DNA of 41,901 nucleotides. Source: an uncultured Eubacteriales bacterium. Lineage in GTDB: Bacteria; Bacillota; Clostridia; Oscillospirales; Oscillospiraceae. The stretch is taken from the NCBI GenBank assembly GCA_900550705.1, contig URTG01000001.1:1-41901 (forward strand). The letters are read 5' to 3'. Under the pieces are notes generated by a model. The model worked only from the letters and a program-made list of their open reading frames with translations, was not told where the DNA came from and did not search any database. Positions 52-984 of the stretch are shown here, one piece after another (within the stretch, counting starts at the first letter, position 1; the number at the start of each line of letters is the position of its first letter). The position numbers and the translations under genes are program-made.

Positions 52-107
52 CTCCTACCTCATCCCTCCTAACTCCTAACTTCTAACGTCTGACTCCTAA
101 CTCCTCG
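52..107. repeat. Degenerate heptamer tandem repeat (CTCCTAA)n, ~8 units, overlapping the GNAT stop codon
   Basis: Units read directly: CTCCTAC, CTCATCC, CTCCTAA, CTCCTAA, CTTCTAA, CGTCTGA, CTCCTAA, CTCCTCG. Confidence 0.75.
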
Positions 108-984
108 TCAAGTCCAGAATCCCCCGCACCATCCTCGTCGCCCGGCTCTCCGGGGCCAGGCGTTGGACCAGCTTGGCGGAGGAGAGGGTCAGGGTGGGGA
201 TTTCTAAAGTAGTATCCCCGGGAAGCTCGTCCACCAGGGCCTGGGCGGCGGCGTGGAGGACGGCCAGGGCGGCGGCGGGGCTGCCGTGGGCGGTGAAGAA
301 CTGGGACAGGACCAGGGCGTGCTCCCCTGCCGGGGAGACGACGGCGCAGGCGATGGGCGCACCGGAGCGGTCCAGAAGGACCACGCTGGCCCGGGGCAGG
401 GCGCGGCGCAGCTCGGAGAGGGAGACATCGGCAATGCGGTTTTCCTCCAGGGTGCGGAGCAGCTGGCGGAGGGCGTAGTCCGGCAGGTCGGCCAGGGCGC
501 GGAGGGCGGCCCCGGCGGGCAGGGGGACGGCCCGCTTCAGCAGGGGGCTGTCGGCCGCCTGGGCCAGGGAGAAGGTCCAGGACACCACCTGGTCCGCCTC
601 CTCCAGCACAAAGCCTGCCTGCTCCAGAAAGGGGGCCAGCCCCTCGACCTGGGGGGAAAACAGGGCGGTGAGACGGCGGACACCGGCCTCGGTCCAGGAC
701 TGGACCGCCTCCAGCAGCTCCATCAGCAGGGTGCCGCCCAGGGCGCGGCGGCGGAAGGCGGGGGCCACATAGAGACTGACCAGCTCCAGGGTGTTCTCAT
801 CCCCGGCGGCCAGACGGGCGCAGACGGCGGCCCGGGCCTCGCCCTCCTCCACCAGGGCCAGGCCGAAGGCGTCGCCGGTCTGGATGGCCTCCACCGCCTC
901 CGCCGTCAGCAGGGGGGCGGTGTGGGCGGCCTGGTCGGGGCCGATGGCGTAGAGGGCCACCGGAGGCAGTGCAGCTTGGGACAT
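97..984 (-). CDS. GNAT-family acetyltransferase-like protein (probably two GNAT domains), downstream of the Ntox11-like toxin gene
   Basis: Motif A LYVAPAFRRRALGGTLL, then FLEQAGF. SD AAGGAGG overlaps the upstream gene's TAA. Paralogous to 39426..40274. Confidence 0.8.
   Translation of the reverse strand: MSQAALPPVALYAIGPDQAAHTAPLLTAEAVEAIQTGDAFGLALVEEGEARAAVCARLAAGDENTLELVSLYVAPAFRRRALGGTLLMELLEAVQSWTEAGVRRLTALFSPQVEGLAPFLEQAGFVLEEADQVVSWTFSLAQAADSPLLKRAVPLPAGAALRALADLPDYALRQLLRTLEENRIADVSLSELRRALPRASVVLLDRSGAPIACAVVSPAGEHALVLSQFFTAHGSPAAALAVLHAAAQALVDELPGDTTLEIPTLTLSSAKLVQRLAPESRATRMVRGILDLTRS

Follow-up and report, generated by a model that had tools for sequence, protein, structure and literature searches.

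Two cargo genes at opposite ends of an extracellular contractile injection system (eCIS) locus in a gut Clostridia genome each abut a gene for a protein of the GNAT superfamily, and the two GNAT proteins are paralogs. This observation, which was first made from a single stretch of DNA, is confirmed and holds well beyond it. The stretch, called the window here, is the complete 41.9-kb contig C1 (GenBank URTG01000001.1; GC content about 65%) of a metagenome-assembled genome (MAG) of 1.73 Mb in 217 contigs that is 94.7% complete. One pair consists of GNAT1 and a cargo protein with an Ntox11 toxin domain, and the other of GNAT2 and a cargo protein provisionally described as kinase-like. From comparison of sequences, the interpretation that we favour is that the tandem GNAT would be a cargo-cognate accessory factor directed at the loading leader of its neighbor.

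Two GNAT-cargo pairs in one eCIS locus

The two pairs comprise the following features.

97 to 984, minus strand: GNAT1, a predicted tandem-GNAT protein of 295 residues, partner of the Ntox11 cargo (Pfam Acetyltransf_1, AlphaFold2 model, Foldseek, tree)
736 to 753, minus strand: P-loop of GNAT1, residues 78-83, RRRALG (acyl-CoA pyrophosphate-binding motif Q/R-x-x-G-x-G/A)
985 to 996, minus strand: 12-nt spacer between the Ntox11 gene and GNAT1, with a GGAGGG ribosome-binding site (sequence)
997 to 2673, minus strand: Ntox11 cargo gene, 558 residues from the ATG at 2673, open frame to 2742 (PF15521, E 2.6e-28; orthologs start at the equivalent Met)
2344 to 2673, minus strand: leader of the Ntox11 cargo, residues ~1-110, Q/E-rich at its start, with a Y..F / PLP..PVAGG motif; the basic patch lies at residues 81-100 and has a net charge of +7
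2428 to 2430, minus strand: codon for basic-patch residue Lys82 (invariant: 14 of 14 aligned orthologs, 27 of 27 distinct leaders)
39426 to 40274, plus strand: GNAT2, a predicted tandem-GNAT paralog of 282 residues, partner of the second cargo (Pfam, tree)
39627 to 39644, plus strand: P-loop of GNAT2, QRRGIA, an exact match to Q/R-x-x-G-x-G/A
40278 to 41900, plus strand: second cargo gene, 'kinase-like', fold unconfirmed (conserved motifs, protein-atlas lead); cut by the contig end
40278 to 40607, plus strand: leader of the second cargo, Q/E-rich and then with a basic patch of net charge +7 at residues 81-100

In the first pair the cargo gene stands upstream. Its stop codon (TAA, 997-999) is followed by the spacer and then by the GNAT1 ATG at 984. 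In the second pair the GNAT gene stands upstream, in an open frame from 39414 to 40274 that closes with a TAG at 40272-40274, and 3 nt separate it from the ATG of the second cargo gene at 40278. The start of GNAT2 is likely the ATG at 39426, because the GNAT of locus L130 (54% aligned cargo family) begins MSIQYG and the window protein would begin MSIEYG. The spacers of 12 nt and 3 nt are thus as short as the initial annotation had given them, and its Ntox11 assignment is borne out by the PF15521 match. No terminator-like site lies between GNAT2 and the second cargo gene, and a 17-bp hairpin is found 3' of the latter.

Both GNATs exceed the cut-off of the superfamily profile Acetyltransf_1 (PF00583; 20.7 bits), GNAT1 with 34.4 bits (E 2.9e-8) and GNAT2 with 28.2 bits (E 2.4e-6), and in both the match falls within the first ~125 residues. 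The claim that the two proteins align throughout also stands: BLASTP gives 27% identity over 171 residues (E 2e-6), the family alignment joins them end to end, and all four pairs of segments that had been quoted in support are found aligned in the latter. When GNAT1 was used as a single query against the whole genome (E <= 0.001), it retrieved nothing but itself, GNAT2 and a third copy (GNAT3), which is on contig C17, and a family profile added a fourth on contig C117 (GNAT4). Since only family copies are retrieved genome-wide, GNAT1 and GNAT2 form a specific subfamily and do not reflect generic GNAT similarity. A related-locus search of genome contigs with GNAT2 alone gave no match. NCBIfam holds no family for any of the four GNATs or their four cargo proteins.

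All four family members abut a protein with the same leader (4/4). GNAT3 is followed on the same strand by a 501-residue protein, a second AAA+ ATPase and a PI3_PI4-kinase-like protein, and GNAT4 lies 228 nt downstream of a 599-residue protein. The C-terminal parts of the four neighbors are unrelated: one is Ntox11, one is 'kinase-like' and two have no Pfam family. Their N-terminal design is common to all, with a Q/E-rich first 40-70 residues, a Pro/Ala-rich stretch and a basic patch (+4 to +7) within residues 81-100. When the whole genome was scanned heuristically for this design, exactly those four genes came back. The scan criteria were derived from the same four genes, and therefore only its specificity is informative.

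What is the second cargo? Its full length is 550 residues in L057, a metagenome contig that is 97% identical, so the window cuts off only nine codons. The label 'kinase' that had been given to 40278-41900 could not be upheld: there is no Pfam match at E 10, 14 homologs carry no kinase family and a PDB profile search came back empty. BLASTP between the second cargo and the PI3_PI4-like protein of C17 gave no match either. The protein atlas offers a lead only, with a cluster bearing PI3_PI4_kinase at rank 20 and LepB_N at rank 28. The invariant motifs of the family are a G-loop-like motif, a D..N motif resembling a catalytic loop and a D-K-E motif resembling the DFG triad.

A rare tandem-GNAT family with a conserved P-loop

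GNAT1 and GNAT2 are predicted to be tandem-GNAT proteins, with two GNAT-like domains per chain. An AlphaFold2 model of GNAT1, built from a 15-row alignment, has a mean pLDDT of 87.5 and shows two alpha/beta GNAT-like halves. Foldseek matches this model over its full length to 2wpw (a tandem GNAT of the clavulanate pathway; E 9.5e-14), 7q3a (MAB_4324), MshD (1ozp) and Eis-type enzymes. It also finds VipF (7wx7, E 2.4e-11; 6wqb, E 5.8e-11), with a sequence identity of 10-13%. At the level of sequence profiles the N-terminal domain resembles AAC(3)-I, Naa50/Naa20 and RimI. The C-terminal domain has no Pfam match, and an exhaustive search with it among 1.84 billion cluster representatives yielded 30 proteins at E <= 0.001, nearly all of them 285-305 residues long. 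Housekeeping GNATs that lie beside these cargo genes by chance were considered and ruled out by this rarity (30 in 1.84 billion; 3/399 class genomes) and by the constancy of cargo-type neighbors.

The P-loop, a motif that follows strand 4 in the GNAT superfamily, is strongly conserved in the family. GNAT1 has A instead of G in the fourth place of the motif (RRRALG). Among 119 members, all have R or Q at position 78, 96 have G at position 81 and 118 have G or A at position 83. The strict motif Q/R-x-x-G-x-G/A occurs in the N-terminal half of 98/119 members and in the C-terminal half of 12/119. Otherwise the sequences drift apart, and paralogs are only 17-35% identical to one another. The proteins are acidic (pI 4.4-5.4).

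A word-based search for longer proteins with a fused GNAT found none, which is weak evidence. One metagenome cluster representative of 408 residues (P0134), which came from the exhaustive search with the C-terminal domain, carries an Ntox11-type leader-like fragment (PVA... basic patch ... LF..W) ahead of a full tandem GNAT. It looks like a deletion product from which the toxin domain has been removed.

The pairing holds across genomes

The pairing was followed from the GNAT side and from the cargo side, in loci with simple open reading frame (ORF) calls taken mostly from MAGs, with one genome per species. Orthologs of GNAT1 were found in 17 loci of Oscillospiraceae, Lachnospiraceae and Eubacterium genomes. 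All 17 lie directly 3' of an Ntox11 gene, with gaps of 9-110 nt, and two of the loci have two tandem pairs. Many of these pairs have arginine-biosynthesis or groES/groEL genes as neighbors, and no eCIS gene lies closer than 7 kb. A gp19-type tube gene is present elsewhere in four of the five tested genomes with such a stand-alone pair. The fifth (L016) has a truncated Ntox11. Only the last 247 codons of the Ntox11 gene are left in this locus (L016:6224-7885; L158 is on the same contig). They stand beside low-GC foreign genes, and the GNAT downstream of them is intact.

A search that starts with the cargo gives the same picture. For Ntox11, a family GNAT is found beside the cargo in 36 of 37 loci, and the sole locus without one is a broken fragment at a contig start. 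The GNAT is downstream in most loci and upstream in five (AAA->GNAT->Ntox11); in L157 it is one gene (1.9 kb) away. The second cargo family was traced to 72 loci, eight of which are cut at the upstream edge and uninformative. A tandem-GNAT ORF lies directly upstream on the same strand in 56 of the 64 informative loci (53 within a strict window plus L082, L094, with a half-length ORF, and L103, which were read individually). L069 brings the total to 57/64. It holds an array of three second-cargo genes, and the head GNAT, just outside the locus, ends 1 nt before the first copy. In L069 and L130, three tandem second-cargo paralogs, each with a full leader, have a single GNAT at their head, which itself follows a P2_I-like baseplate gene.

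Twelve more distant family members (L035-L040, L052-L056) come from seven sampled genomes, five at the level of the same family and two at that of the class. They adjoin large proteins whose N-terminus is leader-like or which carry an eCIS_core (PF13699) domain. Both gene orders are seen among them. A 78-residue ORF intervenes in L040, and a Pvc15-like ATPase is nearby in L035, L036 and L056. The order AAA->GNAT->cargo is repeated in L056 and in L075, L081, L085, L117, L159, L160, L165, L166 and L167. A gene-neighborhood analysis had been suggested in the initial annotation as the check on enrichment beside contractile injection system cargo genes, and its outcome is clear: every family member examined abuts a leader-bearing or eCIS_core-type protein, or stands one gene away (L040, L157).

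At the level of whole genomes the family is sparse. Of 151 genomes in the same taxonomic family, nine contain it at E <= 1e-5 and five at E <= 1e-12; within the class the figure is 3/399. Several copies often occur in one genome. Pvc16_N was found in 9 of the 151 genomes. The GNAT family is present in 4/9 genomes with Pvc16_N and in at most 5/142 without it, counts that are given without a test statistic because relatives are not independent. Among the latter five, G036 has a tube gene, G078 has none and the other three are short matches to the N-terminal domain only.

The GNAT goes with the leader and is cognate to the cargo

Seven informative loci of the second cargo family have no GNAT (L068, L096, L097, L098, L101, L102 and L126), and they share another property: in all of them the homolog has no long N-terminal region. 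Here the leader is defined by composition and profile coordinates. The seven proteins have 80, 133 or 175 residues before the G-loop, or a profile match that begins only at position 223-290, near the start of the ORF, or a different N-terminus. At least 232 residues precede the G-loop in all GNAT-linked homologs in which it can be located (41/41). In other words, the GNAT is absent in 7/7 leaderless homologs and present in 57/57 with the N-terminal region, and therefore it goes with the leader and not with the toxin domain. Three of the genomes with leaderless homologs contain no GNAT family member anywhere, and the tube gene was not found in three of four such genomes tested. In one of these loci (L068:1337-4757) a Pvc15-like ATPase gene runs straight into the leaderless homolog, which is 54% identical to the window's second cargo in the aligned part. 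There is no GNAT between the two genes, and no tube gene was found in the genome.

The initial annotation had argued that one family flanking two unrelated toxin domains fits poorly with classical domain-specific immunity. The 7/7 versus 57/57 split does disfavour such immunity. However, it is not one GNAT that serves unrelated toxins, since the clades of the family are specific to cargo families. This emerged when 130 members were placed in a maximum-likelihood tree (quick search in IQ-TREE, with SH-aLRT support values). Cargo labels change 15 times on the tree, against a minimum of 7 and a mean of 67 after shuffling, and 0 of 200 shuffles were as low. Near-copies inflate this shuffle test, so that the real evidence is the clade structure. 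The 36-37 GNAT1-type proteins adjacent to Ntox11 form one clade with 100% support, whether they are encoded upstream or downstream of the cargo. The GNAT2 clade has 13 members and 99% support, and all of them lie directly upstream of homologs of the second cargo. Acetatifactor arrays point the same way, with an own GNAT for every cargo (cargoX->GNAT, Ntox11->GNAT, GNAT->cargo3-like). Clades that track the cargo, together with one GNAT per cargo in arrays, therefore argue that the partners are cognate.

A model for the tandem GNAT

How might a GNAT act on a leader? Each GNAT would be co-transcribed with a single cargo gene or a cargo array, and its target would be the N-terminal loading leader of the cargo (~100-250 residues), not the toxin domain. 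We tentatively propose, at somewhat less than even chances, that the tandem GNAT acylates the leader of its own cargo in an acyl-CoA-dependent reaction. The acidic GNAT (pI 4.4-5.4) would first bind the leader of its own cargo. The N-terminal GNAT domain, in which the P-loop is kept, would then move an acyl group onto the leader. The acceptor would most likely be a conserved lysine in the basic patch, some 80-90 residues from the N-terminus, or alternatively the N-terminal amine. Acylation might mark or hold the cargo for hand-over to the Pvc15-like AAA+ loader and might also keep the cargo inert in the producer. Binding to the leader, catalysis, the acceptor residue and the effect on loading are all steps that we infer.

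The leader had been described as Lys-rich. A basic patch is indeed present, but it is a K/R patch and not simply Lys-rich, and a single lysine is invariant among the leaders of the Ntox11 family. In 27 distinct leaders of this type the Lys82 column is always K and never R, whereas the adjacent basic columns mix K and R. This singles the residue out as a candidate acceptor, an indication that is suggestive only.

Several observations weigh against the acylation proposal. In the second cargo family the column that corresponds to Lys82 is K in 39 of 49 proteins, Q in six, N in three and R in none, with a poor alignment in the divergent clade that supplies the Q residues. Outside the P-loop no candidate catalytic acid or base is conserved across the 119 members. 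Only V73, R78, R79, G81, F125 and a few leucines are conserved in at least 80% of them, a pattern that fits a pure binding protein as well. A mirror-tree comparison does not separate leader from toxin domain: GNAT distances correlate with r 0.77 and 0.78, respectively (partial r 0.28 and 0.33). The single GNAT at the head of three cargo genes in L069 and L130 means that a strict 1:1 pairing does not hold throughout. In two genomes a GNAT stands beside a cargo gene (intact in G078, truncated in G554), and yet no tube gene was detected in either. Finally, five of the nine Pvc16_N-positive genomes (completeness 80-99%) have no family member at E <= 1e-5. The family is therefore an accessory of one cargo class and not of the machine itself, and it does not behave as a core component of the eCIS.

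The alternative that survives best is a non-catalytic chaperone or adaptor on a GNAT scaffold. Such a protein would bind its own leader, keep the cargo soluble or unfolded and present it to the AAA+ loader, and acyl-CoA would be at most a structural ligand. The pairing, the dependence on the leader and the cargo-specific clades are equally expected for a chaperone. The family also has the properties of a secretion chaperone or adaptor, with a cognate gene that is adjacent and a family that is common to unrelated effector domains. The rapid divergence of the paralogs (17-35% identity), the lack of a conserved catalytic residue outside the P-loop and the way in which acidic GNATs face a basic leader patch all suit this idea. 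However, constraint on the P-loop (118-119 of 119) is hard to explain for a pure binder. It is because of this strong conservation that we favour an acyltransfer enzyme over a non-catalytic chaperone, which we regard as the less likely of the two, with perhaps one chance in a handful or slightly better.

Could the GNAT instead be an immunity protein, one that binds the toxin domain, or acetylates the toxin or the toxin's target, and so protects the producer? Tight two-gene modules also occur among housekeeping genes at a distance from eCIS loci. Most Ntox11 loci have the GNAT downstream of the toxin, and the truncated Ntox11 of L016 retains an intact GNAT. In addition, most antibacterial eCIS toxins have no known immunity genes according to the part of Geller et al. 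2021 (PMC8213781) drawn on here. Against this, homologs that keep the C-terminal domain and lack the leader have no GNAT (7/7), including the 54% identical homolog in L068. The GNAT thus does not accompany the toxin domain regardless of the leader, as an immunity protein would. The one family is found with at least five unrelated C-terminal domains, and the gene order is variable. As for Ntox11 itself, the relevant part of Zhang et al. 2012 (PMC3482391) gives no immunity protein for it and places the domain in eukaryotes as well. The GNAT-less state of leaderless homologs, the diversity of toxin domains, the variable gene order and the absence of a listed Ntox11 immunity protein together make immunity improbable.

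A further reading, slightly less probable again, is that the GNAT is itself an injected effector that rides into the tube on its leader-bearing neighbor. The Foldseek matches to VipF (7wx7, E 2.4e-11; 6wqb, E 5.8e-11) recommend this reading, because VipF is described as a translocated tandem-GNAT effector in the portion of PMC10936415 consulted. However, matches to metabolic tandem GNATs are equal or better. The GNATs have no leader of their own, and a single effector activity would have no need of several divergent copies per genome that are each linked to a different cargo. Least probable of all is a GNAT that acts on some other substrate (the AAA+ loader, a tube protein or a small molecule) and merely travels with cargo cassettes: the order AAA->GNAT->cargo in L056 and nine other loci and the resemblance of the N-terminal domain to aminoglycoside and N-terminal acetyltransferases would suit it, but cargo-specific clades and one GNAT per cargo in arrays are unexpected for one common substrate, and many GNAT-cargo pairs lie far from any ATPase gene.

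Relation to known secretion partners and acyltransferases

Small cognate partner genes that adjoin effector genes are familiar from other secretion systems. They include the class I chaperones of type III secretion systems, the Eag/DUF1795 and Tap/DUF4123 proteins of type VI secretion systems and the Lap partners of LXG toxins in type VIIb secretion systems. In these cases one family serves unrelated toxin domains, associates with the N-terminal targeting region and is cognate-specific. The GNAT family is likewise gene-adjacent, cognate and associated with the leader across unrelated toxin domains. It differs in its unrelated fold (a predicted tandem GNAT with a conserved P-loop) and in belonging to an eCIS of Gram-positive gut bacteria.

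A second precedent is provided by the toxin-activating acyltransferases HlyC, CyaC and RtxC, which are encoded beside the RTX toxins that they mature by lysine acylation. These enzymes are single-domain proteins that use acyl-ACP and modify the body of the toxin, and the toxins are exported by type I secretion. The GNAT gene also lies beside a toxin gene, and the lysine acylation proposed here would occur on the loading leader. The GNATs are not members of the HlyC family, in that a Pfam scan of GNAT1 and GNAT2 gave GNAT families only.

Closer in architecture is NpuN, from the nostolysamide lanthipeptides. According to the part of PMC13060382 used here, NpuN is a tandem GNAT whose P-loop is confined to the N-terminal domain, and it acylates a Lys of a peptide from the same cluster. 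On this description it is a precedent for the acylation proposal in three respects, namely the tandem-GNAT fold, the P-loop in the N-terminal domain and a Lys substrate encoded in the gene cluster. However, as described there, its substrate is a natural product of the ribosomally synthesized and post-translationally modified peptide class and not a secretion cargo. The same excerpt (PMC13060382) states that VipF has P-loops in both domains. VipF, from the Legionella Dot/Icm system, is alike in predicted fold (Foldseek E ~1e-11) but is itself translocated and only 10-13% identical.

In the eCIS field, PVC (Pvc15) and AlgoCIS (Alg15) are described, in the parts of three reports that bear on loading (PMC11495950, PMC9054023, 10.64898/2026.05.27.728243), as using an N-terminal loading sequence and an AAA+ loader. 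On that account the present system is alike in having an N-terminal, non-conserved loading region of the cargo and a Pvc15-like ATPase gene beside the cargo. It differs in that the leader is longer and has a conserved basic patch. The GNAT sets it apart as well from what was found in print: the words GNAT and acetyltransferase are absent from the main texts of the 2026 AlgoCIS loading preprint, the 2025 survey of contractile injection systems in metagenomes, Danov et al. 2024 and Geller et al. 2021. A full-text literature search, whose coverage left out most subscription journals, found no description of a pairing between GNATs and eCIS cargo. From its gene context and predicted fold, the partner appears to be of a known kind (a cognate secretion partner or a toxin-modifying acyltransferase) in a new combination of fold and system.

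The eCIS locus and its surroundings

The remaining features of the window are these.

13763 to 34549, plus strand: eCIS structural block with Pvc16_N, sheath, gp19-type tube, two CIS_tube, gpD hub, spike, gp25, two baseplate-J and P2_I-like genes (Pfam)
36157 to 36846, plus strand: OmpR-type response regulator (Pfam)
36843 to 39131, plus strand: Pvc15-like AAA+ ATPase (WHD + AAA), presumed cargo loader (Pfam)
39144 to 39365, plus strand: 73-residue ORF between the ATPase and GNAT2, with a basic stretch (QQKRLRRQKE) plus an acidic run (sequence)

As judged by its Pfam families, the block at 13763-34549 is a complete eCIS. Two large ORFs of 798 and 997 residues within it (18502-23919, plus strand) have no Pfam family, and this stretch is the window maximum for GC content (0.72) and for AT skew (0.28). 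The 73-residue ORF at 39144-39365 also drew no family in the Pfam scan. The OmpR-type regulator gene shares its last 4 nt with the beginning of the gene for the Pvc15-like ATPase, and a similar regulator, present as a fragment only, adjoins the ATPase in L036. The regulator may be an eCIS regulator. Upstream of the eCIS (7631-10943, plus strand) are a MORN-repeat gene and a gene for a 683-residue protein with OEP/TolC-like and coiled-coil matches (Pfam). The OEP/TolC-like match is to an outer-membrane-type family, which one would not expect in a Clostridia genome.

C1 is joined to C17 via a dispersed repeat of ~170 bp in the 97%-identical metagenome contig, and therefore GNAT3 and its cargo belong to the window's island. 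The repeat (L057:7523-7693 and 9850-10018; just past the window end at 41901) has matches in over 40 contigs of the MAG, in many of them at the extreme end, and probably accounts for much of the fragmentation of the assembly. In the metagenome contig it flanks the PI3_PI4-kinase-like gene.

On C17 itself (locus L004) the GNAT3 module occupies 65-6628 on the minus strand, in the order GNAT3, 501-residue cargo, AAA+ ATPase and 695-residue PI3_PI4-kinase-like protein (Pfam E 0.0015, below the cut-off). An 803-residue eCIS_core (PF13699) protein is encoded beyond the module at 12244-14655. The motif GAEQGGI[VI]D[WF]FR[KR] is common to the products of L004:65-2152 (minus strand) and L004:12244-14655 (plus strand) and occurs nowhere else in the genome. 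These are eCIS-linked proteins without a GNAT neighbor, and the motif may mark a second, GNAT-independent class of cargo.

Implications for eCIS cargo loading

The pairing bears on the selection and loading of eCIS cargo and on what keeps the cargo from harming its producer. On these questions the field describes itself as uncertain: in the part of the AlgoCIS preprint cited here (10.64898/2026.05.27.728243) the loading mechanism is called unclear for any eCIS, and a passage of Geller et al. (PMC8213781) calls the missing immunity genes beside most eCIS toxins a mystery. The pairing points to an undescribed helper step in cargo loading, and a GNAT partner that has a cofactor motif and is tied to the leader would give a handle on that step. 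The GNAT would also be a genomic marker for cargo genes that lie far from eCIS loci in gut Clostridia, and a possible extra component to consider in protein-delivery tools based on eCIS.

One bolder extension of the acylation proposal is doubtful but worth stating. Loading might be gated by a post-translational mark, with a private GNAT that acylates the basic-patch lysine and a loader or tube lumen that accepts only marked (or only unmarked) cargo; the same step would keep the toxin harmless in the producer. If this were true, acyl-CoA status and a cognate licensing enzyme would decide what is injected, and it would be the first modification-dependent selection of cargo described for any phage-tail-like injection system.

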